Part shown: piece by piece, positions 19,119-61,915 of the stretch
How positions within the stretch are numbered: the stretch's first letter is position 1
Layout: the number at the start of each line of letters is the position of its first letter
Assembly: GCA_024639335.1 (NCBI GenBank)
Contig: JAHEIN010000001.1
Location: 1,408 to 65,407 of the forward strand
DNA: 64,000 nt
Source: a bacterium
GTDB taxonomy: Bacteria; Actinomycetota; Acidimicrobiia; Spongiisociales; ZC4RG35
Reading direction: 5' to 3'
Position numbers and translations under genes: made by a program
The notes under the pieces: model-generated
What the model was told of the DNA's origin: nothing
What the model saw: only the letters and a program-made list of their open reading frames with translations
Database searches by the model: none

Positions 19119-19124
19119 TCGTCA

Positions 19125-20342: not shown

Positions 20343-20383
20343 CGAGAGAGACGCTATCGGTCGGTCGTTAAGCGAAGGGTAAA

Positions 20384-21079
20384 TCAGCGCAAGACGTAGC
20401 CCCGACCGGGAACCGTCTCGATGGCTGACGGCTCGCCCAGCTTCTTGCGAAGGTTCGAGACCGTGACGCGCACCGTGTTCGTGAAGGGATCCGCCATCTC
20501 GTCCCAGACGTGCTCGAGCAAACGCTCCTGGCTGAGCACCTCGCCCCGATTCCGCATGAAGTACTCCAACAGCGCGAACTCCTTGACCGTCAGCGGCAGT
20601 GCTCGCCCGCTGCGAGTGGCCTGAAAAGCGGCCGGATCGAGGGTGAGATCTCCTACCGAGAGAACGGGGCTTCCCCCAGCGTCTCGACGAAGCAACGCCC
20701 GGACCCTCGCCTCGAGTTCGGCGAAGGCGAAGGGCTTGACCAGATAGTCGTCTGCACCGGCGTCGAGCCCCATGACGCGATCCTCGATCGAATCTCGTGC
20801 CGTGAGCATCAACACCTTCGGCTCGAGCGTGCCGAATGTCTCGACCTCACCAGAACGGATGCGAGAACAGAGATCGACCCCCCGGCCGTCGGGCAGATTC
20901 CAATCCAAGATCACCAGATCGTATTCGACTGTCGACACTGCGAGTTCCGCATCGATGACCGAAGCAGCCGAGTCGACCGCGTGGCCGCCGCGCACCAATC
21001 CGCGCACGATCGCAGAAGCGAGGTCGGGTTCGTCTTCGACAACCAGGAGCCGCATTCCCCGAACTGTATCGACACTCAA
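20384..21079 (-). CDS. OmpR/PhoB-family response regulator (MprA-like)
   Basis: Receiver domain (LLVVEDE...DLVILDWNLPDG...LMLTARD) plus winged-helix output (LTVKEFALLEYFM...GRGYVL). Confidence 0.9.
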   Translation of the reverse strand: MSVDTVRGMRLLVVEDEPDLASAIVRGLVRGGHAVDSAASVIDAELAVSTVEYDLVILDWNLPDGRGVDLCSRIRSGEVETFGTLEPKVLMLTARDSIEDRVMGLDAGADDYLVKPFAFAELEARVRALLRRDAGGSPVLSVGDLTLDPAAFQATRSGRALPLTVKEFALLEYFMRNRGEVLSQERLLEHVWDEMADPFTNTVRVTVSNLRKKLGEPSAIETVPGRGYVLR

Positions 21080-35300: not shown

Positions 35301-37367
35301 TCACCCCACCCCGGCGGCCGATCGTGAGCCGATCGCCTCGGGCACCAGATGTCCTCGTCTGCCGGCCTTTCGCAGGGTCAGTACGAACGCGTTGGTGTCT
35401 TCCGTCCGCTTCAGCGCGAGTGAGCCATCCTGGAGTTCGGCCAGGACCCGGCTGATCGCCAGACCGAGACCAATTGAAGACGGCATCGTCTCGATTCCAT
35501 CCATCCGTTGATACGGCAGGAAGATCGAACGAGCCTTCTCCGGGGGGAGCTCCGGCCCGGAGTCGTGTACCTCGACGCGGACGTCGTCTTCGCTCTCCTT
35601 CACGATGACGAAGACCTCATCGCCTCCGTAGCGATATGCATTGGTGACGAGGTTGCGCAGGATCTGACGAACGCGTACCGGATCGGCAATGACATCGACC
35701 CGGGGAGCTTCACCATCGATCTTCGCGTGTGAGTGAGGGAGCGATCGGAGTGTCCGCTCGACCAGCCAGCCGATGTCAAATGGCTCGAAATTGATCGTGA
35801 CCTCACCGACGTCCGATCTCGACCACACCAGCAGATCCTCGATGATGTGACTCATCTCGATGGCGTGGTGCTCGATCAGTTCCCGGAACTCATCGAGTTC
35901 TGCCTCCGTGTAGAACGAGGACTCGTTGCGCATTTCGTGGCTGAAGCCGAGCACCGCAGTGAGCGGTGTCCGCAGCTCGTGAGAGATCGACGCGATGAAC
36001 CGGTTCTGTGATTCCAGAGTCGCTTCGACATGCTGACGTGCGACGGTCAACTCCGTGACGTCCTGCAATGCGACGTAAACGTTGGAATAGTCCGGCTGAC
36101 CAATCGTGCCGGCTGCATGCCACCTCACGACGAGCTCGATCGGCTGCCCGTCGATGTCGATGTCAGAAGCGGTGTGCTCGGCGACCAGATCGCCATCGGA
36201 AACAGCCATGACGCCGGCGAGCAGCGACTCGATCGACCGGTCGTTCAGGCGGTCCGCGAGCTTCCGTGATTCGTCGCCCAGCCCGAGCCTTCGAGCCAGC
36301 TGCTGCGCGGCGGGATTCGTGTCGGTGATGGTCACCTCCGAGAGGATGGACGCCAGCTCGTGAGGATTGGCGAGCAGGTGTTCACGAACGTCGTGGACGC
36401 CCTGCGCCCTGAGTTCGGCGATTCGCGCCTCGACCCCAGAGTGATCCTCGCGATGAATGGGCACCGGCGTCGCGTCGAAGAGGGCGCGATGGCTGCGTTC
36501 CACCGAGGTGAGCTCATCTACGACACGGAGCCGCTCCGCCTGGAGCTCGTCAGGCCGAATCAACAGCCCGCGTACGTACAGGCCCCCCAGAACGGCGAGT
36601 CCAATCCCGAGCACCCAGATCAGCGTCGAGAGCTCCGAGGACCTGGGCCAACCGGCAATGGGGGCTACCGCGACGGTCCACGGAAGCGGCAGTCGATCTG
36701 CGCCGACGGAGCGAAGCACCGGCTCCTCCAGCGGTCGCTCTCCGATGATGAGCGATCGATCGTGGTCTCGCACGATGACGTCGAACCCGCTGGAGGATTC
36801 GGCGATCGTGCTGCTCTCGATCAGTTGATCCCAATCGACGATGACAGCCGCGAAGCCCCACGGTGCACCGGTGTCGTCGAAGATGGGGCGTCTGATCGCC
36901 AGCCCTCGACCGCCTTGCACGAGTTGGAACGGGCCTTCCAGGGTCGTCTCGCCCGTATCGAACGATCGTTCAAGGAGCCTCCTGCGAGTGTCATCGGCGA
37001 AGAGTTCGAGGCCAATCGCGGCCTCGTTGCCACTGATCGGGTAGACGACCTCGATCCGACTGGCAACGACGATCTGAACCGACTTGACAGCCACGGTCGA
37101 CTCGACCAACGATTCGGCGTACGAGTCGAACCTCGTCTCGATCGAGGCCCAATCCCGGCCGTGCGAGGCGATGAATGCCGTGAGGCCGTCGGCGGCCGAG
37201 ACGTACAGCAACAGTGTCTGTTCCAGCTCTCGAGCCTCGGACTCGGCGACCTGTGTTGCCTCCGACTCGATCGAGAGACGCGCGGACGTCGTCGCCAACT
37301 GGTCAACCAGCGTCGCAGCGGCCAGCAGGCCCACGGCAACCAGCAGCGGGATCAATGCGCGTCTCAC
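35301..37367 (-). CDS. Orphan sensor histidine kinase with extracytoplasmic sensor domain and PAS-like domain
   Basis: ORF 35301..38297 trimmed to the GTG at 37367 (VRRALIPLLVAVGLLAAATL; GAGGAA upstream). Second TM, PAS-like region, H-box SISHELRTPLTAV, HATPase N/G boxes. No adjacent response regulator. Confidence 0.7.
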   Translation of the reverse strand: MRRALIPLLVAVGLLAAATLVDQLATTSARLSIESEATQVAESEARELEQTLLLYVSAADGLTAFIASHGRDWASIETRFDSYAESLVESTVAVKSVQIVVASRIEVVYPISGNEAAIGLELFADDTRRRLLERSFDTGETTLEGPFQLVQGGRGLAIRRPIFDDTGAPWGFAAVIVDWDQLIESSTIAESSSGFDVIVRDHDRSLIIGERPLEEPVLRSVGADRLPLPWTVAVAPIAGWPRSSELSTLIWVLGIGLAVLGGLYVRGLLIRPDELQAERLRVVDELTSVERSHRALFDATPVPIHREDHSGVEARIAELRAQGVHDVREHLLANPHELASILSEVTITDTNPAAQQLARRLGLGDESRKLADRLNDRSIESLLAGVMAVSDGDLVAEHTASDIDIDGQPIELVVRWHAAGTIGQPDYSNVYVALQDVTELTVARQHVEATLESQNRFIASISHELRTPLTAVLGFSHEMRNESSFYTEAELDEFRELIEHHAIEMSHIIEDLLVWSRSDVGEVTINFEPFDIGWLVERTLRSLPHSHAKIDGEAPRVDVIADPVRVRQILRNLVTNAYRYGGDEVFVIVKESEDDVRVEVHDSGPELPPEKARSIFLPYQRMDGIETMPSSIGLGLAISRVLAELQDGSLALKRTEDTNAFVLTLRKAGRRGHLVPEAIGSRSAAGVG

Positions 37368-37472
37368 GGTCGGTGATTCCTCATCCGACCCAACCTGTCG
37401 GCACGGGCGTGGTGCAACTAAGCGGCTCGACGACGCAGCTTCGGGAACGCTCGAGCTGTCTAGGGTTCGGTC

Positions 37473-38681
37473 ATGGCTCGAAACGCTTACATCACCTCCT
37501 ACGTCCGAACTCCGATCGGTCGCTACGGGGGCAGTCTGGCACCGGTGCGCACCGACGATCTGGCCGCAATCCCGATCCGGACGCTGATCGGACGCCATCC
37601 CGACCTGGACCCTGCATCGATCGACGACGTCATTCTCGGTGCGACGAATCAGGCGGGAGAGGACAACCGCAACGTCGCCCGGATGGCATCGTTGCTGGCG
37701 GGGCTGCCGGACACCGTGCCCGGAACCACCGTCAACCGGCTCTGTGGCTCGGGGATGCAAGCGGTGATCGACGCCGCCCGGGCGATCCGCAGCTCGGACG
37801 CCGACCTGGTCATCGCGGGTGGCGTCGAATCGATGTCCCGGGCCCCGTTCGTGGTGCCGAAGGCCGACCGCGCGTTCCCTACTCAGTCGGACATCGTGAG
37901 CACGACCCTCGGGTGGCGGCTGGTGAACCCCCGGTTGAAAGAACTGGGGCACACCGAGTCGCTCGGCATGACCGCCGAGAACGTCGCTGCCGAGTACGAC
38001 GTCAGCCGAGAGGATCAGGATCTCTTCGCATTGTCGAGTCAGGAGAAGGCGGCGAAGGCGATGACAGACGGCCGACTCACAGATGAGATCGCCACGGTGT
38101 CCGTGCCTCGGAGGAAGGGACCGCCAGTCGACGTCTCCAAGGACGAGCATCCGCGCGCGGACTCGAGTATCGAGGCCCTCACCCGGCTGAGGCCGGCCTT
38201 CGCCGACGGCGGGACGGTCACCGCCGGCAACGCCTCCGGCATCAACGACGGCGCCGCAGCCCTGCTGATCGCCTCCGACGCAGCAATCGAGGAGCACGGT
38301 CTGAAGCCCATCGCCCGCATCGTGAGCTCAGCGGTGGCGGGTGTGGCTCCCCGCATCATGGGTGTCGGCCCGATCCCGGCGGTCCAGAAGCTGGAGTCGC
38401 GGACCGGCGTGGCGATCGGTGCTGTCGATGTCGTGGAGTTGAACGAAGCCTTCGCCTCCCAGGCACTGGCCTGTCTGCGGGCCTTCGGGCTCACCGACGA
38501 CGCCGAGCATGTCAACCCGAACGGGGGCGCAATCGCACTTGGTCACCCGACCGGGATGAGCGGAGCCCGGATCACCGGAACGGCGGCTCTCGAGATGGCT
38601 CGCCGCAACGGTTCCAACGCCATCGCCACGATGTGCATCGGCGTCGGCCAGGGCATCGCCGTCCTGCTCGAACAGCCGTAG
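37473..38681 (+). CDS. Acetyl-CoA C-acyltransferase (thiolase II)
   Basis: N-terminal YVRTPIGRYGG, active-site Cys context NRLCGSGMQAV, C-terminal GHPTGMSGARI and CIGVGQG. Confidence 0.9.
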   Translation: MARNAYITSYVRTPIGRYGGSLAPVRTDDLAAIPIRTLIGRHPDLDPASIDDVILGATNQAGEDNRNVARMASLLAGLPDTVPGTTVNRLCGSGMQAVIDAARAIRSSDADLVIAGGVESMSRAPFVVPKADRAFPTQSDIVSTTLGWRLVNPRLKELGHTESLGMTAENVAAEYDVSREDQDLFALSSQEKAAKAMTDGRLTDEIATVSVPRRKGPPVDVSKDEHPRADSSIEALTRLRPAFADGGTVTAGNASGINDGAAALLIASDAAIEEHGLKPIARIVSSAVAGVAPRIMGVGPIPAVQKLESRTGVAIGAVDVVELNEAFASQALACLRAFGLTDDAEHVNPNGGAIALGHPTGMSGARITGTAALEMARRNGSNAIATMCIGVGQGIAVLLEQP

Positions 38682-50899: not shown

Positions 50900-51240
50900 G
50901 AGTCGCCGCGCCGTCGCCGATGATCTCCGCTCTGACAGCAACGCCGGGCACATTGCACGGCAATTGGCACCAACACCCGGACCACCGGTGGGCGGGTTCC
51001 GTCCGTGCAACATCGGGAGGCTCTTGAGGTTTCTCTAACCATCTTCGAACCGACCCCTAAGCAATGTCGAGGCACGATGATCGCATGTCCGTTTCTTGGT
51101 GCCCAGACAAGCCCCGTCGGCAATCTGCCCTTCGTTACACAAGCCCGCATGCCCGTAGGTCGTGGCCACGAGGCGGGAACGTTCGCGCAAGTACCACCAC
51201 CCTCGCAAGAGGAAGTCGGCTGAGGCTTCTCGTCTCCAAG

Positions 51241-53445
51241 ATGTCGATGGCGGCGCTCGCCTTTCTCCTCATCGCCCTGAGCCCCGGGATCGCCGGTGCG
51301 CTGGCGGGGGCACCGGTCACCATCAGCATCGGGGCCACTCTCGATCCGAGCTCGGTCACGATCGAGCCCGGTACCAGCGTCACCTGGGTGAACGCCGATT
51401 CCGAGCGCCATCGGATGGCGTCACAGTCCGGACCCGAGCGATTCGACTCCGGCAACCTGGACCCCGGCCAGTCCTTCACGATGACCTTCGACCTCGAAGG
51501 CTCCTACTCCTACCTCGACGACCGCAACGACGAGAACAGCGCATACTTCGGGACGATCATCGTCTCGTCCGGCGCACCCTCCACACCGCCGCCTGGCGGT
51601 GGTGGCGGTGGAGGGCCGATGACCATCGATGTCGGCGATCGCATCTATCGACCCGCCTCGGTCACGGTCAGCCCCGGCACGACGATCACCTGGAGAAACA
51701 TCGACGACCGACCCCACACGGTCACCGATCGGGCCGACTCGTTCGACTCAGGCATCTTCGACACCGGCGGCACCTATAACCGAACGTTCGACACCCCGGG
51801 GACGTTCCAGTACTTCTGCACACTGCATCCGGACATGGTGGGGACTGTCTCGGTCACGGACGCAGACGGTGGTGCGCCACCGCCCCCCGATTCGACGCCT
51901 CCACCGACCACGACGCCGCCACCACCGCCACCGCCGCCCGCCACGCCGGGTTCGGTGACGATCTTCGACAATGGCTACACCCCGGCGGCGTTGTCCATTG
52001 CCGAAGGAAGCACCGTCACGTGGACGAACACGGGAGCCGCTCCTCACACGGCTACGGACCGGAGCGGACGATTCGACTCCGGCTTTCTCATGACCGGTGA
52101 CAGCTTCAGCCAGACGTTCACCGCGGCGGGCACCTACGAGTACTTCTGCACGATCCATCCCGAGATGGTCGCGACCGTCACGGTCACAGGATCCGGAGGG
52201 GAACCTCCACCACCACCACCGCCGCCACCGCCACCGCCTCCGCCGCCAACCACAGATCCGGCGCCGCCACCTCCAGTGACGGTGTCTCCGGCGTCAGGAG
52301 GGATCGAGATAGTCGACAACGCCTTCCGCCCAGCGACACGGCAGGTCTCGGTCGGAACGACACTTGCATGGACCAACACCGGAGCACTCCCGCACACCGT
52401 GACAGATAGGGCGGCTCGGTTCGACTCGGGACTGCTCATGAGCGGCGACACCTATCGACGCACGTTCGACAGCGCAGGGACCTTTGAGTACTACTGCACG
52501 CTCCATCCCGAGATGGTCGGCACGATCGTTGTCAGCACCGGTGATGGCGCCGCACCGCCCCCTCCGCCTCCGGCCGCGCCCACGCCTCCTGCGCCAACCG
52601 GATCCTCAGCATCCCCGACCGGCTCGGCGGAAGCGACCGGGAGCGGCGACGTGCAGGTCGTCGACAACGCCTACCTCCCGGAAACGATCACCGTCGCGAG
52701 GGGTTCGACACTCACGTTTGCGAACACCGGAGCACTCCCCCACACGGTCACGGATCGGGCAGGTGCGTTCGATTCAGGGATCGTGATGCCCGGCGACTCC
52801 TACCGTCGTTCGTTCGGGTCGGCGGGAACTTTCGAGTACTACTGCACGATCCATCCAGAGATGACCGGAACGGTCGTCGTCACGGCGTCCGGCACACCGG
52901 TCGGAAGCGCTTCCAACGGAGGCGACGGGCTCGTCGACGAGACGGTCGAAGAATCCACCACGACGACTTCGCTTGCCGAGTCGGAGCCGGCGGATGCCAG
53001 ACCGGCCCGGGCTTCGATCGACGTCATCGACAACGACTTCGACCCGGATCCCCTCAGGATCTCCGTCGGCGGCACCGTCGAATGGTCGAACGTCGGCGAT
53101 CTCCCGCACACCGTCACCGCCGATGAATTCGACTCGGGCATCATGAGCCCGGGAGACGCCTTCGAGTGGACCTTCGAGGAGGAGGGCAGGTACGAATACG
53201 TGTGCACGCTCCATCCGGGCATGGCGGGCACCATCATCGTCGAGGCTGCCGCCGCCGAGGTGGAAACGGCACTCGGTCTGACAGGCGACGACGTCGCTGC
53301 ATCGGGAAGCAGCGAATCTGCGTCCCCGGGCAACTCCGTCGCCTTCGCAGTGTTCATGGCCGCCGGGCTCGCCGTGGCGGGAGTGGGGATGGCGGTCGGC
53401 GTCGGTCGCTTCACCAGGGCCATCGACAACGGCACAATCGGGTGA
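51241..53445 (+). CDS. Membrane-anchored extracytoplasmic poly-cupredoxin protein (six tandem plastocyanin/amicyanin-like domains, five with complete type-1 Cu ligand sets)
   Basis: Signal peptide MSMAALAFLLIALSPGIAGA. Six repeats of about 100 aa each follow the pattern V.V.G.T..W.N....PHTVTD....FDSG.......Y..TF...G..EYYCT.HP.M.GT..V. The His/Cys/His/Met copper ligands are present in repeats 2-6. Poly-Pro linkers join the repeats. C-terminal TM helix VAFAVFMAAGLAVAGVGMAVGVG. Confidence 0.8.
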   Translation: MSMAALAFLLIALSPGIAGALAGAPVTISIGATLDPSSVTIEPGTSVTWVNADSERHRMASQSGPERFDSGNLDPGQSFTMTFDLEGSYSYLDDRNDENSAYFGTIIVSSGAPSTPPPGGGGGGGPMTIDVGDRIYRPASVTVSPGTTITWRNIDDRPHTVTDRADSFDSGIFDTGGTYNRTFDTPGTFQYFCTLHPDMVGTVSVTDADGGAPPPPDSTPPPTTTPPPPPPPPATPGSVTIFDNGYTPAALSIAEGSTVTWTNTGAAPHTATDRSGRFDSGFLMTGDSFSQTFTAAGTYEYFCTIHPEMVATVTVTGSGGEPPPPPPPPPPPPPPPTTDPAPPPPVTVSPASGGIEIVDNAFRPATRQVSVGTTLAWTNTGALPHTVTDRAARFDSGLLMSGDTYRRTFDSAGTFEYYCTLHPEMVGTIVVSTGDGAAPPPPPPAAPTPPAPTGSSASPTGSAEATGSGDVQVVDNAYLPETITVARGSTLTFANTGALPHTVTDRAGAFDSGIVMPGDSYRRSFGSAGTFEYYCTIHPEMTGTVVVTASGTPVGSASNGGDGLVDETVEESTTTTSLAESEPADARPARASIDVIDNDFDPDPLRISVGGTVEWSNVGDLPHTVTADEFDSGIMSPGDAFEWTFEEEGRYEYVCTLHPGMAGTIIVEAAAAEVETALGLTGDDVAASGSSESASPGNSVAFAVFMAAGLAVAGVGMAVGVGRFTRAIDNGTIG
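51590..53230 (+). repeat. Intragenic tandem repeats (~330-nt units encoding cupredoxin domains) with GC-rich poly-proline linker tracts
   Basis: Recurrent DNA blocks such as CCGCACACCGTCACCGATCGGGC and TACTGCACGCTCCATCCCGAGATGGTCGGCAC appear at about 330-nt periodicity. CCACCACCACCGCCGCC tracts lie between the units. Confidence 0.7.
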
Positions 53446-53450
53446 GAGCC

Positions 53451-54296
53451 ATGGCCAGGCTCCTCGGAAGGCTGATCGGGCTCATGGCCTGCCTGATCGT
53501 GGTCGCAGCGTGCTCGAGCGAGACGAGCCCGTTTCCCGATGGCAGCTTTGCAGTGGTTGCCAACGCCGACATCGGAACCGGAGCGTCGCGAATTCAGGTC
53601 GGTGTCGTCGGTCCGGACGGCGATCGGCTGGGCGGGCCCGATGTTCCGGTGTCGCTACGGATTGCGCCCGGCGACGGCGGCGAGGTGGTCGCATACGACG
53701 CCGAGTGGATCTGGCTGATCCAGGACATCGTGGGCCTCTACAAGACCGAAGCGGTCTTCGATGCCCCGGGAGTCTGGACGGTGTCGGTTGCGCCGGGGAG
53801 CGGTTCCGCCCTGCCGGCTACAGGCTTTCAGGTGCTCGATCCGACGTTCGCACCGGACGTGGGCGACGCCGCTCCGATCGCCCCGATCGACACCTTGGCC
53901 ACCAAACCCTTGGATCATCTGACGACCGACCCGAATCCCGACACCGACTTCTATCAGCTCACGCTGGAGGAGGCGTTCAGCTCGGGGCGGGAGTCGGTGG
54001 TGGTTTTCTCGACTCCGGCGTTCTGCAGAACGGCGACCTGCGGGCCGACGCTCGACATCGTCAAGGATGTCAAACCGGAGTATCCCGACGTCAACTTCGT
54101 CCACGTCGAGGTCTACACCGATATGCAGAGCCCTGATTTTGCCCCGACGCCGGAGTTTCTCGCGCCTGCGCTCGGTCCGGAGTTCTGGAACCTCCCGACC
54201 GAGCCCTGGGTGTTCGTTGTCGACGCGAATGGGGTCGTCACCGCCCGGTTCGAGGGAACGGCGACAGCCGAGGATCTCCGTACCAGCCTCGGCTGA
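53451..54296 (+). CDS. Lipoprotein with thioredoxin/SCO-like CxxxxC segment (putative copper-handling partner of the poly-cupredoxin)
   Basis: Starts 5 nt after the cupredoxin gene. Lipobox VVAACSS. C-terminal VVVFSTPAFCRTATCGPTL resembles the SCO1/SenC FGYTHCPDVCPTTL metal-binding strand-loop. Confidence 0.5.
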   Translation: MARLLGRLIGLMACLIVVAACSSETSPFPDGSFAVVANADIGTGASRIQVGVVGPDGDRLGGPDVPVSLRIAPGDGGEVVAYDAEWIWLIQDIVGLYKTEAVFDAPGVWTVSVAPGSGSALPATGFQVLDPTFAPDVGDAAPIAPIDTLATKPLDHLTTDPNPDTDFYQLTLEEAFSSGRESVVVFSTPAFCRTATCGPTLDIVKDVKPEYPDVNFVHVEVYTDMQSPDFAPTPEFLAPALGPEFWNLPTEPWVFVVDANGVVTARFEGTATAEDLRTSLG

Positions 54297-54336: not shown

Positions 54337-54690
54337 CTAGTTGCGGCTGTCGCACCAGGCGGCGACCACGGCCCGGACGTCGTCGGCGGCGGTAGCCACG
54401 TCGTCGAGATCGGCGAACGTCATGTACCGGGCGGTCTCCCCTCCCCCGGTGAGCCGAGGGTGATCACCGGGGAGCGAGGCGCCGGTGTGGAGCATCAGGC
54501 TGGCGTGTTTCTTCGAGTTGGGGTTGAAGCTCGCCATATTGCCCTCGTACATGAACGTCGGCGACTTCCACTTGATCGTTTCCGTGATCCGTTCGTCTTC
54601 GAGGATGATCTCCCTGACGGCCAACACGACGTCCTTCATCGGGTTGTCGTACTCCGCGAACCAGGCGTCGACTTCTGCGCTGTGCCTCAT
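54337..54690 (-). CDS. DUF1801 (YdhG-like) domain protein
   Basis: 117 aa with a DUF1801-like pattern (AEVDAWFAEY...KWKSPTFMYEGNMASF). Confidence 0.6.
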   Translation of the reverse strand: MRHSAEVDAWFAEYDNPMKDVVLAVREIILEDERITETIKWKSPTFMYEGNMASFNPNSKKHASLMLHTGASLPGDHPRLTGGGETARYMTFADLDDVATAADDVRAVVAAWCDSRN

Positions 54691-54752
54691 GAAGAGACCG
54701 TATCGCGCCGACGCGGCTGATGGCGGCGAAACATCGCTCTAGCCTCCGGCAG

Positions 54753-55220
54753 ATGGATGTACATCCCGCCCTCGCTCCGTTGATGTTCCTCACGGGAACC
54801 TGGGTCGGGAGCGGTCGTGGCGACTACCCGACGATCCAGGCCTTCGCCTACGACGAGGAGATCTCGATCGTCCCGTTGGGCGCCAAGCCGATGCTCAGGT
54901 ACTCACAGTCGACATGGAGGGCCGGTACGAAAGAACCGCTCCACACCGAGTTCGGCTACTTCCGACCGGCGGGTACCGACGCAGCCGAGCTCGTGATCGC
55001 ACAGCCCACCGGGATCACGGAGATCCACACCGGAGGAATCGACGGCCGAGGTGTGGTCTTCCGCTCAGTGTCGGTCGAACGGGCTCCGACCGCCAGGGAG
55101 GTCGCCACGGTGGAACGCCGGATCGCAGTGGATGGGGATCGCCTCACCTACGAGCTGTTGATGGGAGCGGTGGGCCAACCCCACCAGCTCCATCTGGAGG
55201 CGACGCTGCACCGCTCGTAG
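54753..55220 (+). CDS. Nitrobindin-like (THAP4/DUF1794 heme-binding beta-barrel) protein
   Basis: N-terminal LAPLMFLTGTWVGSGRGDYPTI matches the nitrobindin family signature. Start set to the second ATG at 54753; the ORF track starts at 54720. Confidence 0.65.
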   Translation: MDVHPALAPLMFLTGTWVGSGRGDYPTIQAFAYDEEISIVPLGAKPMLRYSQSTWRAGTKEPLHTEFGYFRPAGTDAAELVIAQPTGITEIHTGGIDGRGVVFRSVSVERAPTAREVATVERRIAVDGDRLTYELLMGAVGQPHQLHLEATLHRS

Positions 55221-55223
55221 AGA

Positions 55224-56558
55224 TCAGCTCGGGTCGGTGACCTGGCCGAGGAAGAGCATTTCGCCGGTCGAGCCGTGCTCGATCCAGAACAGGAACGGGC
55301 GGTCGGCGGTGAAGGTCGCAGGCTGGGGTGCGGACTCGAGCCCGATGATGATCGCCGTCGCTGCGGCGGCCTCGGTGCCTTCCTCGTCCAACGCGATGAA
55401 TGTCTTGTGGAACGCATCGGTCACGAAGAGCTCGCGGACCTCGGTGATCCCGGTGAAGTCTGCACCGTCACCCACCGGCCGCTCGAATGCGGCACGCATC
55501 CCGAGCGCCTGGAGTGCCGGCTTGAGAGAGATCTCGGCTTCGAATTCGAAGGACGGGAGCGTCAGGTCCACGATGTGCTCCTGCCAGGCGATGTCCAGAT
55601 CGCTCACATCCAACGCCGCTGCCAACTCCGCAGGCGATCCCGTGGTGGGGAGCAACACGACCATGGCGGCGTCGCCGGCATATGGCAGCCGGACCGCCTG
55701 GAACCGATCGGTCTCGGCGTACCCGGTCCGCAGGTCGGCATGCATGAGTGGCGTCTCGACCCCGGTGTCGTCGAGCCGCGTGAACGTGCCGGGCTCGGTC
55801 CGCTCGGGGTCGAACGGCTCGAACCAGTTCGCCTTGAACCAGATGGCATTGACCAGTGAAAGCCGAGTGTCAACGGTGATCGCGCCCTCTGGGATGAGAT
55901 CTTGGATTCGATCTTCGGTGGCATCCTCGACCCATTCGTTGATGACCTGACGCGAGCCTTCCGTGTCGCCGACGTAGTCGACGATCCGGAGCCCGGCGCC
56001 GTAGTTCTCGGCCAGCGTCAAGAGATAGCCGTCCAGGAAGGGGTAGCCGCCCTGGCCCCAGGCCGAGTTGGCCGGTCGGATCGTGAACGGCGCGCGGGTG
56101 TCGTCCTCACCCATCGGGGGCGGGGTATCCCCAAGGCGTGCGTCGATGGCGTTTCGGACCTGATGGAGGGTGGCATCGTCGACCGAGAGATGCAGCACAT
56201 CTGCGATCTCGGCTGCGGTGTCACCTCGCGCACCTGGATACAGCATCGAGAGCGCGGTTGCGATCGAGTACGGAGACAGCATCACGTTGTCGTCACCGGC
56301 CACCACCTCGAAGACGTCGAGCCCGAACCGGGCGTCCGCCGCAGCGACCTCCTCGATGTCTTCGTCGTCGACGGTCGGCGTCACCCGAGCCACCTCGACG
56401 CTGATCACCTCACCGGGAGTGAACCCACCCGGATCGGTACCGCCGTTGGTTGTGGTGGGAGTCTGCGGAGTTGTGGTGATCGCGGTATCTCCTCCCCCGC
56501 ACGCGGCGAGGATCAAGGCAAGGACAACGATCAAACCTGTCAGTCGTGTCGTCCTCAT
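55224..56558 (-). CDS. Serpin-family serine protease inhibitor, lipoprotein
   Basis: Start trimmed to the ATG at 56558 (MRTTRLTGLIVVLALILAACGG lipobox). Serpin N-terminal helix region LSPYSIATALSMLYPGARGDTAAEI. C-terminal serpin signature FTADRPFLFWIEH after a reactive-centre-loop-like segment (GTEAAAATAIIIGLESAPQ). Confidence 0.85.
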   Translation of the reverse strand: MRTTRLTGLIVVLALILAACGGGDTAITTTPQTPTTTNGGTDPGGFTPGEVISVEVARVTPTVDDEDIEEVAAADARFGLDVFEVVAGDDNVMLSPYSIATALSMLYPGARGDTAAEIADVLHLSVDDATLHQVRNAIDARLGDTPPPMGEDDTRAPFTIRPANSAWGQGGYPFLDGYLLTLAENYGAGLRIVDYVGDTEGSRQVINEWVEDATEDRIQDLIPEGAITVDTRLSLVNAIWFKANWFEPFDPERTEPGTFTRLDDTGVETPLMHADLRTGYAETDRFQAVRLPYAGDAAMVVLLPTTGSPAELAAALDVSDLDIAWQEHIVDLTLPSFEFEAEISLKPALQALGMRAAFERPVGDGADFTGITEVRELFVTDAFHKTFIALDEEGTEAAAATAIIIGLESAPQPATFTADRPFLFWIEHGSTGEMLFLGQVTDPS

Positions 56559-56595
56559 GTCGATGTGACGATTCTGCGAACGATCGGGTTCCAGC

Positions 56596-57711
56596 TCATG
56601 CCGACGGAAGCACGAATGTGAAGGTCGCGCCCTGGCGGGGGCCGTCACTGCTCGCCATGAGATCACCTCCGTGGAGGCGGGCGAGCGTCCGGGCGATGTT
56701 GAGACCGATCCCCGTCCCGGGCGATTCCGGTTCGAGGCGTGTGAATCGCTCGAAGATGACTTGGATCTGGTCGGGCCGCAGCCCGATTCCGGTGTCCTCG
56801 ACCTCGATCCGAAGGGTCGACCCGTCGACGCTGCCTCGGATCGTCACCGATCCGCCCAAGGGTGTGTGCGTGAGTGCGTTGCCCACGACGTTCATCACCG
56901 CTTGGGTGAGTCGGTCCCGATCAGCCATCACGACCAGACCGTCACGGATCTCGATCACGAGATCCACGCCCTTCATCTCGTACTGCGAGCGCAGCCGATC
57001 GGATACCACACCGATGATCTCGGCCAGATCGACGCGCTCGAGATCCAGGTCGAGCGCTCCTTCCTGTGCTCTGGAGAGCAAGGAGAGGTCCTGCGTGAGC
57101 CGACCGAGACGATTGGCCTCGGCTGCGACCGTCGTGAACGTCTCGGTGTCAGGCGGCAGTACTCCATCGATGAGGCCCTCCATGTATCCCTCGATGGTGG
57201 AGAGCGGATTGCGCAACTCGTGGGCAAGGTCAGAGACCAGTTGGGCTCTCGCCAGCTCGGTGTCGGCCAGTTCGGCGCCAAGAGCGTTGATGGACCGGCC
57301 GAGATCGGCGAGCTCGGCTTCGGACGCCAACTCGACCGCATGCCGGTAGTCCCCGGCCGCCATCCGCTCGGTGGCGGCTCGCATTTCGGTGAGTTGACGC
57401 AACATGCGCCTGCTGAGCCAGAACGCCAGCGCCACGGCGAGCACGAGCCCGATCGCTCCAGCGACGAGCAGTCCGTTTGTGAGTGCTTCTCGCCAGGCCT
57501 CGTCGGCCTCAGAAGGAACGGCAACAGACTGACTCGCTCGACCGGGCCCGGCTCCCCGACCGGCCCCCTGTTGGAGTCCCTGTTGGAGACGCTGCTGAGC
57601 GATGTTGGGCGTGAGCACGGTGACCGTCACGGCGGCCACTGCCATCACGGTGACAACGATCCCGACGTAGGTGACGGCCAAGCGCGAACGCAGCGTGGGT
57701 CGGAAGGTCAC
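56596..57711 (-). CDS. Sensor histidine kinase
   Basis: Two TM segments, HAMP, H-box AHELRNPLSTI, HATPase N/G boxes. 4-nt overlap with the upstream response regulator. Confidence 0.85.
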   Translation of the reverse strand: MTFRPTLRSRLAVTYVGIVVTVMAVAAVTVTVLTPNIAQQRLQQGLQQGAGRGAGPGRASQSVAVPSEADEAWREALTNGLLVAGAIGLVLAVALAFWLSRRMLRQLTEMRAATERMAAGDYRHAVELASEAELADLGRSINALGAELADTELARAQLVSDLAHELRNPLSTIEGYMEGLIDGVLPPDTETFTTVAAEANRLGRLTQDLSLLSRAQEGALDLDLERVDLAEIIGVVSDRLRSQYEMKGVDLVIEIRDGLVVMADRDRLTQAVMNVVGNALTHTPLGGSVTIRGSVDGSTLRIEVEDTGIGLRPDQIQVIFERFTRLEPESPGTGIGLNIARTLARLHGGDLMASSDGPRQGATFTFVLPSA

Positions 57712-58406
57712 TGTGGATCCGCCAGGAAGCGATAGCCCACACCACGGACGGTTCCAACCAGGTCGGGATCGGATGCATCGTCATCGAGCGCCCGTCTCAG
57801 GTTCCGGATGTGCACATCGACGACCCGTTCGTCCCCGACGAAGTCCCACCCCCACACCGCCTCGAGCAACTGACGGCGGGAGAAGACCCGACCGGGCTGC
57901 GAGGCGAGCTTCGCCAGCAGATCGAACTCGAGGGCCGTGAGCTCGCACACTTTGTCGTTTCGCTCGACGTGCCTTCGAGCAAGATCGATCTCGAGCTGCT
58001 CGAACACGAGGAGGTCGTCGTCGGCCGGACGGGCGCTGCGCGCTCTCCGGAGCACGGCCTTGACGCGGGCGATCAGCTCACGAGGGCTGAACGGCTTCGA
58101 CAGGTAGTCGTCCGCTCCAACCGAGAGACCGATCACCTTGTCCGTCTCCTCGGCCCGTGCTGTGAGCATGATCACATAGACATCGGAGAAGCGTCGGATC
58201 TCGCGAAGCGCTTCGATCCCGTCGAGCACCGGCATCTTGACGTCGAGAATCACGAGGTCCGGCTCTCGACGTCGGACCTGTTCCACGGCCTGGTCACCGT
58301 CGGCCGCCTCGATGACCTCGAACCCCTCAGCTCGCAGGTACGAGCCGACGAGGTTGCGGAGGTTCGCTTCGTCATCGACGACGAGGATCTTCGGGGAAGC
58401 CCTCAT
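57708..58406 (-). CDS. OmpR/PhoB-family response regulator
   Basis: Start trimmed to the ATG at 58406 (MRASPKILVVDDE). Receiver plus winged-helix output (LTALEFDLL...GVGYRF). Confidence 0.9.
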   Translation of the reverse strand: MRASPKILVVDDEANLRNLVGSYLRAEGFEVIEAADGDQAVEQVRRREPDLVILDVKMPVLDGIEALREIRRFSDVYVIMLTARAEETDKVIGLSVGADDYLSKPFSPRELIARVKAVLRRARSARPADDDLLVFEQLEIDLARRHVERNDKVCELTALEFDLLAKLASQPGRVFSRRQLLEAVWGWDFVGDERVVDVHIRNLRRALDDDASDPDLVGTVRGVGYRFLADPQ

Positions 58407-58494
58407 GAAGGCAATGCTACGAGCAAAGGGGGCGCCGGTCTGGCGCCCCCTTCGGCTGCAGGGTCCCAGTTGCGGTCCCCACTCGGCTGAACGA

Positions 58495-59022
58495 TCACCG
58501 ACCGCCCCGACCGAGCTGGTTTCCGGTCCCATCTTCGGGGCCTTCATGCAGCGGACCGTTTCCGGCTTCGGAGCCCGGGCCGTAGCCCTGTTGCTCACCT
58601 TGCGGCTCGGCGAGTTTCAGCTGTTGCTGTGCCTCGGTCCGCACCTGCTCGCGCTGTTGGAGCCCGTCGCCGTCGCAGTTGGCCTGATCGCGCACTTGTT
58701 CGCGCTCACGGGTCTGGACCTGTTCCCCGGCCTGGTCAGAAGCGGGGTCATGGATCCGGAGCTGCTTGAGCTCCTGGATCTCCTCACGGTCGACGTCCGG
58801 AGCGTTCGTGCGATCCTGGTCTCGACCACGGATCTGGTCGCGCTCGGCAACCACCGAGTCGTACCCGCACTCTGCGCAATCGCGATCTTGTGCTTGCTCG
58901 CGCACTTGCTCGGCTGTCATCGATCCGCTGTCGAAGTCGGGTCCGCTCGAAGCCACAGCCATGACAGCTGGGATGACGAGCAATAGTGACAGAGCAAGGA
59001 TCAGCAGTGTTCTGCGCCTCAT
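58495..59022 (-). CDS. Secreted low-complexity Gln/Glu/Arg/Asp-rich protein
   Basis: ATG at 59022 with AAGGAGG 6 nt upstream. Signal peptide MRRRTLLILALSLLLVIPAVMAVASS. The remainder is a charged low-complexity sequence with paired Cys (CAEC). Confidence 0.5.
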   Translation of the reverse strand: MRRRTLLILALSLLLVIPAVMAVASSGPDFDSGSMTAEQVREQAQDRDCAECGYDSVVAERDQIRGRDQDRTNAPDVDREEIQELKQLRIHDPASDQAGEQVQTREREQVRDQANCDGDGLQQREQVRTEAQQQLKLAEPQGEQQGYGPGSEAGNGPLHEGPEDGTGNQLGRGGR

Positions 59023-59115
59023 GTTCGAGCCTCCTTTCTTGGTCTCACACATACATGAGACCTCCCCGGCATGAAGGCAACGAACGCAACTCCGTGAAGC
59101 TTGCATGAAGCTGGA

Positions 59116-59334
59116 TCAGGAAACGAGCAACTCTGCGAGGATCAACCCGACCCCGACGAGCGCAACGACCAATCCCACGAACCGCACCAAGAACTCGTAG
59201 GACGCCATGGCCTCGGCGCCCCGCCGATCGAGGGGACGGGGCCAAACCCGCACGGCGCGCTCGACGACGTGCAACGAATTGGTGGCCGCGAGTACCCCGA
59301 GCGCCGCCAACACCACTCCAAGGAACAGGTACAT
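59116..59334 (-). CDS. Small two-TM membrane protein
   Basis: Second ATG at 59334 has AGGAGG 8 nt upstream. Two hydrophobic helices (LFLGVVLAALGVLAA, FVGLVVALVGVGLILAELLV). Confidence 0.4.
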   Translation of the reverse strand: MYLFLGVVLAALGVLAATNSLHVVERAVRVWPRPLDRRGAEAMASYEFLVRFVGLVVALVGVGLILAELLVS

Positions 59335-59503
59335 CGAGAAGCTCCTCCTCATATGATCCCGCTCGTGTCATGCCGGCGACAGAGCAGTTGTAGCCACCGA
59401 CACCACGATGCGGAACACATGGCCGGATCTCGAGGTTTCGTTCCCGGTCGAGGGCCGCGCGCTTGGCGGTCCCGGTAGGTTTGCCGAGTCGGAAGGGAGC
59501 GAG

Positions 59504-61915
59504 ATGAGGGACCAGTACCGGGTGGTTGTGATCGGTGGCGGTGTCGTCGGTGCCAGCGTGCTCTATCACCTCGCAAAGCTCGGCTGGACCGATGTCGCCA
59601 TCCTCGAGCGCAGCGTCCTTACCGCCGGTTCGAGCTGGCACGCCGCCGGTGGCGTCCACGCCCTCAACGCCGATCCGAACATCGCCGCCCTCCAGACCTA
59701 CACCATCGATCTCCTGTCGGAGATCGAGGCCGAATCCGGCCACGACATCAGCCTGCACATGACCGGCGGAATCTCGGTGGCCTCTGCACCGGAGCGATGG
59801 GAGTGGCTCCAGGCGACGTACCGCATCTACCAGACGATGGGGATCGAAGACTGTCATCTGATGACGCCTGATGAGATCGCCGATCGCTGCCCGATCATCA
59901 ACACCGAAGGGGTGCTGGGCGGGCTCTGGGCCGATCGGGAAGGTCACATCGACCCATCGGCAGTCGTACACGCTTATGCCAAGGCGGCTCGTCAACGTGG
60001 GGCTGAGGTGATCGAGCACAACCGGGTGGTGGAGCTGAACCACCGACCCGACGGCAGCTGGGACGTCGCCACCGAGAAGGGGACGATCCACGCCGAGCAC
60101 GTCGTGAACGCTGCCGGCCTCTGGGCGAAACAGGTGGGCCGCATGGTCGGCGTGGAACTGCCGGTGTCACCCCTCGCCCACCACTATCTGGTCACCGATT
60201 CGATCCCTGAGCTGGAAGCCGCGGATGCGGAGATGCCGATGATGATCGACCTCGAAGGCTTCACCTACATGCGGCAGGAACGCACGGGTGTGCTGGTTGG
60301 CATCTACGAGATCGACCACAAGCACTGGAGCGTCGACGGCGCTCCCTGGGACTACGGGATCGAGTTGCTCCAGCCCGAGGTCGACCGGATCTCCGACGAG
60401 CTCTCCATGGCGATGACCCGCTATCCGGTGCTGGAGAACACACCGATCAACACATGGGTGAACGGAGCGTTCACATTCTCTCCCGACGGCAACCCGCTGG
60501 TCGGACCAGTCCCAGGTGTGAAGAACTACTGGTCTGCGTGTGCCGTGATGGCCGGTTTCCTCCAAGGCGGCGGCGTGGGCAAGTCCCTGGCCGAATGGAT
60601 GATCGAGGGCGAGACGGAAGAGGACATCTACGGCATGGACGTCGCCAGGTTCGGGTCATATGCCGAGAACCGGCAGTACATCAAGGAGAAGACAGGCCAG
60701 TTCTACTCGCGCCGCTTCGTGATGACCTACCCGAACGAGCAGCTGTGGGAAACCAGACCACTCAAGACGCCCCCGGCGTACGAGTCGATGACCGGCGACG
60801 GCGCCAACTGGGGTGAGATGTATGGGCTCGAGATCCCCATCTACTTCGCCTCGACCGGCTTCGAGGAGACTCCCACCCTGCGCCGCTCGAATGCTTTCGA
60901 CATCGTGGGCGAAGAGTGCCGACGGGTCCGGGACGGCGTCGGAATCATCGACATCACCGGCTTCTCGCGCTACGAGGTCACCGGGCCCAACGCCGAGGCC
61001 TGGCTCGACCATCTCATGTCTGCCAAGCTTCCCGGCGCCGGCAGGATTCGGTTGTCGCCGATGCTCGGGCACGACGGCCGACTCAAAGGTGACCTCACCG
61101 TGCTGAACTGGGGCGACGGCGCCTGGTGGATCATGGGCTCGTACTACCTGCGTGCCTGGCACATGCGTTGGTTCACCGACCATCTGGGCGAAGGAGTCTC
61201 AGTCCGCGACATCTCCGACGCGGTCGTCGGCTTCGGGCTCTCTGGGCCGCGGTCCCGACATTTGATGGAACTGTTGACCAACGACGACGTGTCGGCCGAG
61301 GCCTTCCGCTTCATGCAGTGCCGGACCATGGACGTCGGGCCGATTCGAGCGAAGGTGGGACGGATCTCGGTGACCGGTGAGCTGGGATACGAGATTCACT
61401 GCGACGCCACCGAGCACATCGCCCTCCGCCGGGCGCTGCTCGAAGCGGGTCGTGAGGTGGAGGCAATCGAATACGGCTTCAACGCCATGGGCTCGCTCCG
61501 GATGGAGAAGAGCTTCGGAATCTGGTCCAAGGAGTTCCGCCAGGAGTACACACCCGGTATGACCGGCATGGACCGGTGGATCGAGTGGTCGAAGGACTTC
61601 ATCGGTGCCGACGCCGCCCGCCGTGAACGGGATGAAGACTCGGCCCCGATGAGGCTGGTGACACTGGAGATCGACGCCACCGACGCCGACGGATCCGAAT
61701 ACGAGCCCGTGTGGCGCGATGGGCGACGAGTGGGATACATCACATCAGGTGAATACGGGCACGTCGTGGGGAAGAGCCTGGCGCTGGCACTGATCGACCG
61801 AGAGCACGAGGCGGTCGGCACCGAATTGACCGCCCATATCGTCGGCGAGGAGCGCCCCGCCCGGATCATCGCCGACTCCCCCCATGATCCCACCGGCTCT
61901 GCGATGCGGGCATGA
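59504..61915 (+). CDS. Dimethylglycine/sarcosine dehydrogenase-family protein (FAD-dependent oxidoreductase fused to GcvT-like folate-binding aminomethyltransferase domain)
   Basis: 803 aa. N-terminal VVVIGGGVVGASVLYHLAK FAD motif and covalent-FAD region SSWHAAGGV. C-terminal GcvT-like domain (GELGYEIH...). Confidence 0.85.
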   Translation: MRDQYRVVVIGGGVVGASVLYHLAKLGWTDVAILERSVLTAGSSWHAAGGVHALNADPNIAALQTYTIDLLSEIEAESGHDISLHMTGGISVASAPERWEWLQATYRIYQTMGIEDCHLMTPDEIADRCPIINTEGVLGGLWADREGHIDPSAVVHAYAKAARQRGAEVIEHNRVVELNHRPDGSWDVATEKGTIHAEHVVNAAGLWAKQVGRMVGVELPVSPLAHHYLVTDSIPELEAADAEMPMMIDLEGFTYMRQERTGVLVGIYEIDHKHWSVDGAPWDYGIELLQPEVDRISDELSMAMTRYPVLENTPINTWVNGAFTFSPDGNPLVGPVPGVKNYWSACAVMAGFLQGGGVGKSLAEWMIEGETEEDIYGMDVARFGSYAENRQYIKEKTGQFYSRRFVMTYPNEQLWETRPLKTPPAYESMTGDGANWGEMYGLEIPIYFASTGFEETPTLRRSNAFDIVGEECRRVRDGVGIIDITGFSRYEVTGPNAEAWLDHLMSAKLPGAGRIRLSPMLGHDGRLKGDLTVLNWGDGAWWIMGSYYLRAWHMRWFTDHLGEGVSVRDISDAVVGFGLSGPRSRHLMELLTNDDVSAEAFRFMQCRTMDVGPIRAKVGRISVTGELGYEIHCDATEHIALRRALLEAGREVEAIEYGFNAMGSLRMEKSFGIWSKEFRQEYTPGMTGMDRWIEWSKDFIGADAARRERDEDSAPMRLVTLEIDATDADGSEYEPVWRDGRRVGYITSGEYGHVVGKSLALALIDREHEAVGTELTAHIVGEERPARIIADSPHDPTGSAMRA

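Follow-up and report, generated by a model that had tools for sequence, protein, structure and literature searches.

Bacterial serpins are poorly understood outside gut and oral bacteria. Miropin of Tannerella forsythia is associated with the cell surface. According to PMC8201313, it is believed to defend the cell against a number of proteases, both endogenous and exogenous, by means of more than one bond of its reactive-centre loop. In Bifidobacterium breve UCC2003, a serpin operon is accompanied by an adjacent two-component system that is inducible by proteases (Alvarez-Martin et al., 2012, as cited in PMC8012564 and PMC8201313). Here, we analyzed a locus of an Acidimicrobiia genome in which a two-component system also stands next to a serpin gene. 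The locus spans positions 55224–58406 of a 64,000-nucleotide stretch of contig JAHEIN010000001.1 (GCA_024639335.1), hereafter the window. It comprises three collinear open reading frames (ORFs) on the minus strand, encoding an OmpR-type response regulator, a histidine kinase, and a lipoprotein serpin (Table 1). An earlier inspection of the nucleotide sequence without database searches, referred to below as the sequence-only reading, had proposed that the two-component system is dedicated to the control of the serpin. Our analysis confirmed the gene identities by Pfam, and the collinearity and junctions as well. It also revealed a conserved promoter-like motif in front of the serpin gene and showed that the regulator and kinase belong to a cassette that is found next to the serpin in a narrow clade. 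The locus thus probably combines two ordinary envelope modules that lie side by side.

The 37-nt gap between the kinase stop codon (56596–56598) and the serpin ATG (56558) harbors a sequence with the layout of a promoter recognized by an extracytoplasmic function (ECF) sigma factor. The motif was first seen by aligning the kinase-serpin junctions with the region upstream from the serpin gene of a related locus, L002 (related loci are designated by L numbers), as two common blocks, GGAACC and CGTC. The segment 56556–56592 contains a −35 element with GGAAC and its AAC, a spacer within the usual length of approximately 16 to 18 nt, a −10 element with CGT, and a nearby start codon. The serpin ATG is located 8 nt downstream from CGTC, and a leaderless mRNA is therefore predicted. 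Conservation of the motif was observed directly in a set of 31 serpin loci obtained by a pattern-based scan with one genome per species. GGAAC-N16-18-CGTC was present directly upstream from the serpin gene in 29 of these loci, irrespective of the identity of the upstream gene, and the other two harbored one-base or spacing variants. The sequence between GGAACC and CGTC was not conserved among loci. The distance between CGTC and the start codon was 8 nt in 21 of the 30 scored loci as computed, and in approximately 24 following start-codon correction. By comparison, the background chance of a motif match is approximately 1.6% per 150 nt. When a start codon and an open frame were required, 27 of the 29 motif matches detected in approximately 0.5 Mb of the sequence examined were serpin starts.

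According to PMC10012870, the actinobacterial sigma-E/sigma-H consensus established in C. glutamicum and mycobacteria is GGAAC-N17-18-cGTT, and leaderless ECF-dependent cases include cg3344 and P1clgR, with 0 to 1 nt to the start codon. The sigma-E promoters of S. coelicolor are described in PMC6767563 as containing AAC in the −35 element and TC in the −10 element. The element upstream from the serpin gene resembles the promoters described in these two articles by its −35 GGAAC, its spacer length, and its CGT-containing −10 element, and also by the existence of leaderless examples and the tie to envelope or stress genes. It departs from the sigma-E/sigma-H consensus in that the −10 element ends with C (CGTC, extended as CGTCAYA) rather than T. 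Keyword searches detected no serpin among the ECF regulon genes in PMC10012870 and PMC6767563.

The conservation data also bear on the possibility that GGAACC...CGTC has another function in cis, for instance as a site for a repressor or as an element of the mRNA leader, the serpin gene being transcribed from further upstream. The window motif is the sole match to GGAACC-N15/16-CGTC in 64 kb, 0.74 matches are expected by chance, and the single match is not significant when considered alone, which leaves room for such an interpretation. However, a non-promoter element would hardly be expected to consist of two short blocks separated by a free spacer of fixed length (16/17 nt), located 8 nt from the start codon whatever the upstream gene, to recur with the same layout in front of an ECF sigma gene and dozens of lipoprotein genes (see below), and to agree with the published ECF consensus (PMC10012870; PMC6767563). 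We therefore regard this explanation as very improbable.

Two additional features of the junction concern the initiation of translation and the significance of the short gap. A Shine-Dalgarno sequence was absent before the serpin ATG in three of the four loci carrying the two-component system, which fits leaderless translation and makes it less likely that a read-through transcript would support efficient internal initiation. In L041 and L010, the gene of an unrelated protease stops 5 nt before the same serpin −35 element. The tight gap is thus no sign of an operon. The same motif was found upstream from a second lipoprotein gene located approximately 1 kb downstream from the serpin gene of L027 (L027:1999-3047), which encodes approximately 335 residues from the picked Val start; the start codon is located 8 nt after CGTC.

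The pattern GGAACC-N16/17-CGTCAYA-N5-ATG was used to scan metagenomes and returned at least 120 matches (loci L047–L166). Among the 120 matches listed, 95 were located in contigs of at least 60% GC, and 84 opened a long ORF. Seventy of the latter ORFs began with a lipobox signal peptide, as compared to 4.1% for a sample of 5591 ATGs taken at random from these contigs. Products among the matches listed included many DUF4349 lipoproteins, in addition to beta-propeller, VWA, META, and SIMPL proteins (examples of motif loci are L047:328-1329 on the minus strand, L127:4902-5927 on the plus strand, and L109:10515-11096 on the minus strand). One of the matches listed preceded an ECF sigma gene followed by the gene of a membrane protein resembling an anti-sigma factor, suggesting autoregulation. 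On the basis of these features, the element behaves as a genuine ECF-type promoter class, largely for exported lipoproteins and probably autoregulated, and the set of motifs looks like an undescribed ECF regulon signature. Literature searches on DUF4349 and sigma factors returned nothing relevant. The motif was also present upstream from several ORFs of approximately 96 to 99 codons of unassigned family, including that of L076, which had no Pfam match.

The distribution of the two-component system was investigated by identifying the neighbors of the serpin gene in related loci using tblastn with the window proteins and pre-called genes. An orthologous regulator-kinase pair was detected by tblastn directly upstream from the serpin gene in one of approximately 25 informative species-level loci (L001, the closest). 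No orthologous pair was detected by the same approach in the approximately 24 other loci, for which at least 2 kb of upstream sequence was available. Exact-protein look-ups additionally revealed the order small protein-regulator-kinase-serpin in L032 (serpin 88% identical) and in L033/L034 (77%), the nearest relatives with conserved gene order (L001, L032, and L033/L034) having serpins 77% to 88% identical to that of the window. Synteny, on which the proposed coupling had been staked, was thus present in these relatives and absent from approximately 24 of 25 informative species loci, and the conservation across the serpin-bearing lineage that would characterize an operon of the B. breve type was not found. 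Linkage between the two-component system and the serpin gene is real but limited to a shallow, genus-level clade.

In other loci, the gene upstream from the serpin gene encodes a GSDH-family protein (L040), a carbonic anhydrase (L042), or a lipoprotein trypsin-like protease (L041 and L010). L002 retains the left neighbor found in the window, a dimethylglycine-oxidase-like gene, which is directly followed by the serpin gene with no two-component system, and the right neighbors are also as in the window (a nitrobindin-like gene, DUF1801, a lipoprotein, and a cupredoxin-repeat protein). A four-gene cassette may therefore have been inserted between the dimethylglycine-oxidase-like gene and a pre-existing serpin promoter in one genus-level clade, insertion being preferred to loss by parsimony. 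L017 was considered as a second case of association between a two-component system and a serpin and was rejected, since the upstream gene encodes an orphan multi-transmembrane kinase, followed by the gene of a DUF3159-like membrane protein, and does not belong to the cassette of the window. The protease encoded directly upstream from the serpin in L041 and L010 (L041:5378-6961 and L010:1252-2643) is a 527-aa lipoprotein with Trypsin/Trypsin_2 domains. It is a candidate for the cognate protease of the serpin; no copy of this Trypsin_2 lipoprotein was found in the window.

Analysis of the kinase homologues led to the identification of the cassette itself. The homologues form two groups, with at least 70% identity for the serpin-linked clade and at most 60% for the second group. 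None of the five second-group cassettes (L035, L037/38, L039, L043/44, and L045/46; kinases 53% to 59% identical) contained a serpin gene, and these cassettes end with the kinase gene, followed by convergent unrelated genes. The partner conserved in both groups is a gene encoding a small secreted protein, which was found upstream from the regulator gene wherever the second-group contigs extend far enough; homology to the window protein was aligned for L035, L037, and L039 (alignment A1). Two motifs are recognizable in this protein, HDPA, which is conserved, and GPLHEGPxDGTGN at the C-terminus. Its gene is preceded by a strong Shine-Dalgarno sequence, AAAGGAGG. The secreted protein matched no Pfam or NCBIfam family, and a profile search returned 32 database relatives. 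It may be an accessory protein of the sensor or the main output of the system.

Three GCTTCAY direct repeats, with starts separated by 11 nt and 23 nt, are located upstream from the secreted-protein gene. Three repeats with identical spacing were present in all eight two-component loci examined, including the distant loci L035, L037, L038, and L039 (kinases 53% to 57% identical). In our judgement, this layout is as expected for a binding site of an OmpR/PhoB-type regulator, and the repeats are considered as putative regulator boxes. The two-repeat pattern CTTCAY-N5-CTTCAY matched the window exactly only once, at this site, and no two-repeat box was detected near the serpin gene when up to one mismatch was allowed in the window scan. 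Thus, a putative regulator site in the serpin promoter, as would be expected for an operon of the B. breve type, was not found, GCTTCAY repeats being present only before the secreted-protein gene. A sequence resembling TTCAC, located at the 3' terminus of the kinase gene, was rejected as a regulator box, since its copies are spaced by 13 nt, the second of them reads CTTCC, and the sequence encodes the common C-terminal TFTF motif of kinases.

Between the secreted-protein and regulator genes, a 101-nt segment containing a GC-rich hairpin folds with a free energy of −48.5 kcal/mol (z = −2.3). Compensatory changes preserve the stem in L032, L033, L001, L035, and L039. The downstream hexamer TAGCAT is invariant in four close loci and is also found, as CTAGCAT-N7-ATG, in the distant loci L035 and L039. 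We infer that this hexamer acts as a promoter, which would generate a leaderless regulator-kinase transcript. The 72-aa ORF located at the head of the cassette displays 75% to 77% amino acid identity in L001, L033, and L034 and was not found in the distant cassettes. The proposed order of the cassette is membrane ORF, three GCTTCAY boxes, secreted acidic protein, hairpin, regulator, and kinase. The cassette appears to be a self-contained, conserved, and uncharacterized unit, whose predicted direct target is the promoter of the secreted-protein gene.

We estimate at approximately 0.65 the probability that the locus consists of two ordinary envelope modules side by side rather than of a dedicated protease/anti-protease circuit, because the serpin has its own conserved promoter motif and the regulator-kinase pair is part of a separate cassette adjacent to it only in a narrow clade. 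According to this model, the serpin gene would possess its own promoter of the ECF-sigma type, filling the 37-nt gap and generating a leaderless mRNA, and would belong to a large group of actinobacterial lipoprotein genes under the same type of promoter. The main competing explanation is that the regulator, kinase, and serpin genes form a single operon dedicated to serpin control, similar to SerRK-SerU of B. breve, raising the level of the inhibitor under envelope or protease stress. The three genes are on the same strand, with a 4-nt overlap (GTGA) between the regulator stop codon and the GTG start codon of the kinase, followed by the 37-nt gap, and the kinase-serpin junction harbors no terminator or stable structure (RNA structure not unusual, z = +0.9). 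Gene order is kept in L001, L032, and L033/L034, and probably in three further contigs, as judged by matching the serpin and kinase hit lists. Against an operon stand the promoter motif of the serpin gene and the lack in most cases of a Shine-Dalgarno sequence for internal initiation, the approximately 24 of 25 serpin loci devoid of the two-component system, the five of five more distant lineages in which the cassette occurs without a serpin, and the location of the putative regulator boxes before the secreted-protein gene. We consider dedicated operon control unlikely, with about one chance in four of being correct. The wiring proposed by the sequence-only reading is thus not supported by the promoter motif, the synteny, or the identity of the conserved partner. 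Control of a serpin by a two-component system is already known in B. breve (PMC8012564).

Several observations weigh against the two-module model. No ECF sigma gene was detected in the window by regular expression and Pfam analysis of approximately 40 ORFs, and the cognate sigma factor was not found; ECF sigma genes located near the serpin or two-component loci L042 and L043 did not carry the motif. Promoter activity and the leaderless start of the serpin gene are predictions based on motif conservation. As no terminator separates the kinase and serpin genes, transcription of the regulator and kinase genes probably continues into the serpin gene, and this read-through may add to serpin expression. 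Gene order has been kept across 12% to 23% divergence of the serpins and in spite of a changed left flank (L033 versus the window), which could reflect selection for linkage. Finally, the serpin operon of B. breve offers a precedent for regulation by an adjacent two-component system, as reported in PMC8012564. A more elaborate scheme can also be proposed. The serpin would be a core output of an ECF envelope regulon of leaderless lipoprotein genes, to which a captured cassette would add a read-through input in one clade, and the secreted protein could act as a bait, sensitive to proteases, that signals extracellular proteolysis to the kinase. We regard this scheme as a speculative proposal with a slim chance of being correct. 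If true, the locus would be a protease-sensing inhibitor circuit after all, by a logic different from that of the sequence-only reading.

Scanning of the region 54500–59500 for consensus sequences, which is uninformative on promoters that are not of the sigma-70 type, revealed no sigma-70-like promoter or intrinsic terminator. Between the kinase and serpin genes, no terminator was found, and a conserved ECF-type promoter motif is present. A generic repeat search of 55100–59600 detected only coding-sequence noise. The GC content was approximately 65% throughout the window, and nothing in this uniform composition suggested a foreign island.

The regulator contains a receiver domain with a phospho-acceptor, Asp55 within LVILD, as read from the sequence, and a winged-helix Trans_reg_C domain. 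The paired HisKA/HATPase_c kinase has the H-box His164 within AHELRNP, as identified in the same manner. These features define a two-component system of the OmpR/PhoB type. The N-terminal part of the kinase comprises two transmembrane helices around an extracytoplasmic loop of approximately 45 residues, rich in Gln and Gly, followed by HAMP. Neither protein reached an equivalog cut-off of NCBIfam, the models of which included MtrA, BaeSR, CseBC, and others. The best matches were BaeS-like for the kinase (201 bits versus a cut-off of 500) and MtrA for the regulator (246 bits versus a cut-off of 300).

The serpin call was upheld by profile search, with a match to Pfam PF00079 extending over positions 3–370 of the 370 positions of the profile (315.9 bits versus a cut-off of 27, E = 5.4e-94). 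The best matches among solved structures were serpins (8gxv, 2.4e-60; SERPINB1, 4ga7, 3.9e-57), and 197 solved serpins matched at E ≤ 1e-3. The C-terminal end of the protein, FTADRPFLFWIEH, contains a match to PROSITE PS00284 (FTADRPFLFWI, residues 416–426), identified by regular expression. The N-terminus, MRTTRLTGLIVVLALILAAC, includes a lipobox in which Cys20 is the residue predicted from the sequence to be lipidated; MRTTRLTGLIVVLALI-LAAC conforms to the pattern [LVI][ASTVI][GAS]C by regular expression. The proposal of a signal peptide and a lipoprotein therefore stands. The lipobox is followed by a Thr/Pro/Gly-rich linker of approximately 55 residues. The protein would be anchored via Cys20 on the outer face of the membrane and held off by this flexible linker. 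A lipobox was found in 107 of the 120 orthologues examined. At least 120 orthologue clusters, with 59% to 100% identity, were detected, and those with a source name were mostly from Acidimicrobiia metagenome-assembled genomes. A look-up of the window serpin by its exact sequence returned no record. Bacterial serpins had been described as sporadic by the sequence-only reading. The lipoprotein serpin family is not rare within its own lineage and is widespread in environmental Acidimicrobiia.

Alignment of the reactive-centre loop, an analysis that had been suggested for predicting the target, identified Glu408 (55335–55337) as the predicted P1 residue, with Leu407 as P2 and Ser409 as P1'. Two approaches gave this assignment: residues were counted from the hinge, and the loop was aligned, at equal length, with those of SERPINB1 and 8gxv. 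The hinge, GTEAAAATA, conforms to the pattern of small residues characteristic of inhibitory serpins (Gly at P15, Thr or Ser at P14, and Ala, Gly, or Ser at P12–P9), which permits loop insertion, and is identical in 112 of the 120 orthologues examined. From its sequence, the serpin appears to be of the canonical inhibitory type. Among the orthologues, P1 was Thr in 56 and Glu in 51 of 120, P2 was Leu in 77, and P1' was Ser in 114. The class of the target protease cannot be read from P1 because this position alternates between Thr and Glu. The serpin would most likely trap surface serine proteases by a suicide-substrate mechanism, with cleavage around Leu407-Glu408-Ser409, and cleavage at more than one loop bond, as in miropin, is plausible. 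A 525-aa lipoprotein with PD40 beta-propeller repeats, encoded by L080:296-1870 downstream from the same promoter motif, displays a match to only the first approximately 70 positions of the serpin profile in its N-terminal stretch (E = 1e-9). A fusion between part of a serpin and a propeller is possible.

The window contains a second regulator-kinase pair, followed by an HtrA-type protease gene, and the sequence-only reading had considered the two systems as paralogues that would set a protease/anti-protease balance. The regulator-kinase-HtrA set does exist. The gap between the kinase stop codon and the HtrA start codon is 6 nt, and the protease matches the Do-family peptidase model (7.6e-75) with a single PDZ domain. 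The same gene order, an OmpR-type regulator, a kinase, and an HtrA-family protease, is found in mprA-mprB-pepD of Mycobacterium tuberculosis. The resemblance concerns gene order, and the unit of the window shows no specific relationship to the two-component system on the serpin side. The HtrA-side system reached no NCBIfam equivalog cut-off and matched no MprAB model. Between the two systems of the window, the regulators are 38% and the kinases 27% identical. In our judgement, these values are approximately those expected for any two OmpR-family systems; the systems are not close paralogues.

The argument based on sister systems is weak because of this level of identity and because neither system corresponds to a named equivalog. 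The serpin and the HtrA protease, encoded 36 kb away, are both predicted to be extracytoplasmic and are both encoded downstream from OmpR-type two-component systems, and HtrA is the only serine protease recognized in the window. These are the points in favor of a regulated protease/anti-protease pair under two sister systems. They are outweighed by the low identity of the systems, the lack of co-occurrence of the serpin and the HtrA unit in related loci (a single weak HtrA-like match was detected, in L004), the distinct Trypsin_2 lipoprotein found beside the serpin in L041 and L010, and the variable P1 residue, which gives no pointer to HtrA. We found no evidence linking the serpin to HtrA, and we hold such a pair to be most unlikely. 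The sole other peptidase recognized in the window is encoded at 1491–2768 on the plus strand and combines four LysM repeats with a C-terminal M23 peptidase domain, as in cell-wall hydrolases. The window also encodes a large histidine kinase of approximately 1000 residues with a CHASE sensor domain (35301–38327, minus strand).

Near the serpin gene, the region 51064–54296 of the plus strand encodes a 793-aa secreted protein with approximately six cupredoxin/Copper-bind repeats and poly-Pro linkers, followed by a CxxxC-containing lipoprotein. A related two-component cassette in L043 (L043:2757-5516) is located beside genes for an ECF sigma factor, an LpqE-like protein, SCO1/SenC, and cytochrome c. 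A copper or redox theme for the two-component cassette is possible.

Table 1. Positions of the features of the serpin locus, the two-component cassette, and the HtrA unit. Positions refer to the window unless preceded by a locus number.
Feature	Position	Strand	Basis
Lipoprotein serpin coding sequence, 444 aa	55224–56558	−	Pfam Serpin PF00079, full length
Reactive-centre loop, residues 394–415, GTEAAAATAIIIGLE-SAPQPAT (SAPQPAT after the P1/P1' bond)	55314–55379	−	Hinge count and alignment
Signal peptide with lipobox LAAC, Cys20 at 56499–56501	56499–56558	−	Read from sequence
Predicted ECF-sigma-type promoter: −35 GGAACC (56587–56592), 16-nt spacer, −10 CGTC (56567–56570)	56567–56592	−	Motif conservation
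Sensor histidine kinase, 371 aa	56596–57711	−	Pfam HAMP, HisKA, HATPase_c
OmpR/PhoB-type response regulator, 232 aa	57708–58406	−	Pfam Response_reg 3e-33, Trans_reg_C 2e-28
TAGCAT, −10-like hexamer, 7 nt before the regulator ATG	58414–58419	−	Conservation
GC-rich hairpin, stem of approximately 12 bp, terminator- or attenuator-like	58426–58452	−	Between secreted-protein and regulator genes
Small secreted protein, 175 aa	58495–59022	−	Signal peptide, acidic Asp/Arg/Gln-rich repeats
Three GCTTCAY direct repeats, putative regulator boxes (59105–59110, 59094–59099, 59071–59076)	59071–59110	−	Conservation
72-aa ORF, predicted membrane protein with two transmembrane helices, cassette head	59116–59334	−	Conservation
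Second OmpR-type regulator (20384–21079), kinase (19125–20342), and HtrA-type protease (17985–19118)	17985–21079	−	ORFs
Secreted-protein cassette regions in relatives	L035:3664-4205, L037:3772-4233, L039:3587-4155		

Bacterial serpins, serpins associated with the cell surface, and two-component systems beside serpin genes are kinds already known. The new elements, which are both predictions, are the ECF-type leaderless control of a widespread family of Acidimicrobiia serpins and an unnamed conserved cassette of regulator boxes, secreted protein, regulator, and kinase. These elements are useful and unsurprising to a specialist. The serpin family would be controlled by the predicted ECF-type leaderless promoter and not by the neighboring two-component system. 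More generally, caution is required in Actinobacteria, which are rich in leaderless genes, since a short gap between genes on the same strand can conceal a complete promoter. The promoter class of lipoprotein genes and the unnamed cassette may aid the annotation of actinobacterial regulons.

Comparison with human serpins places the predicted cleavage site in a familiar position. The reactive-centre loop has the same length as that of SERPINB1 (4ga7); in the alignment, Glu408 falls opposite the Cys at P1 and Leu407 opposite the Phe that serves as alternative P1. The overall identity to human serpins is only approximately 30% to 35%, and the Acidimicrobiia protein differs from them in being a prokaryotic lipoprotein with a P1 residue that is not conserved among orthologues. 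SERPINB9 has an acidic P1 residue, and by analogy Glu408 would suggest a target protease specific for Glu or Asp. Miropin belongs to a different phylum and has an unrelated loop sequence. The conserved Leu at P2 and the variable P1 (Thr or Glu) of the Acidimicrobiia serpins would fit the multi-site use described for miropin in PMC8201313. With respect to the serpin operon of B. breve, as presented in PMC8012564 and PMC8201313, the adjacency in Acidimicrobiia is confined to a narrow clade, the serpin gene keeps its own predicted ECF-type promoter, and the putative regulator boxes are located upstream from a different gene, that of the secreted protein. The two systems have in common an actinobacterial cell-associated serpin, a two-component system encoded alongside, and a proposed role of the serpin in protection against proteases.

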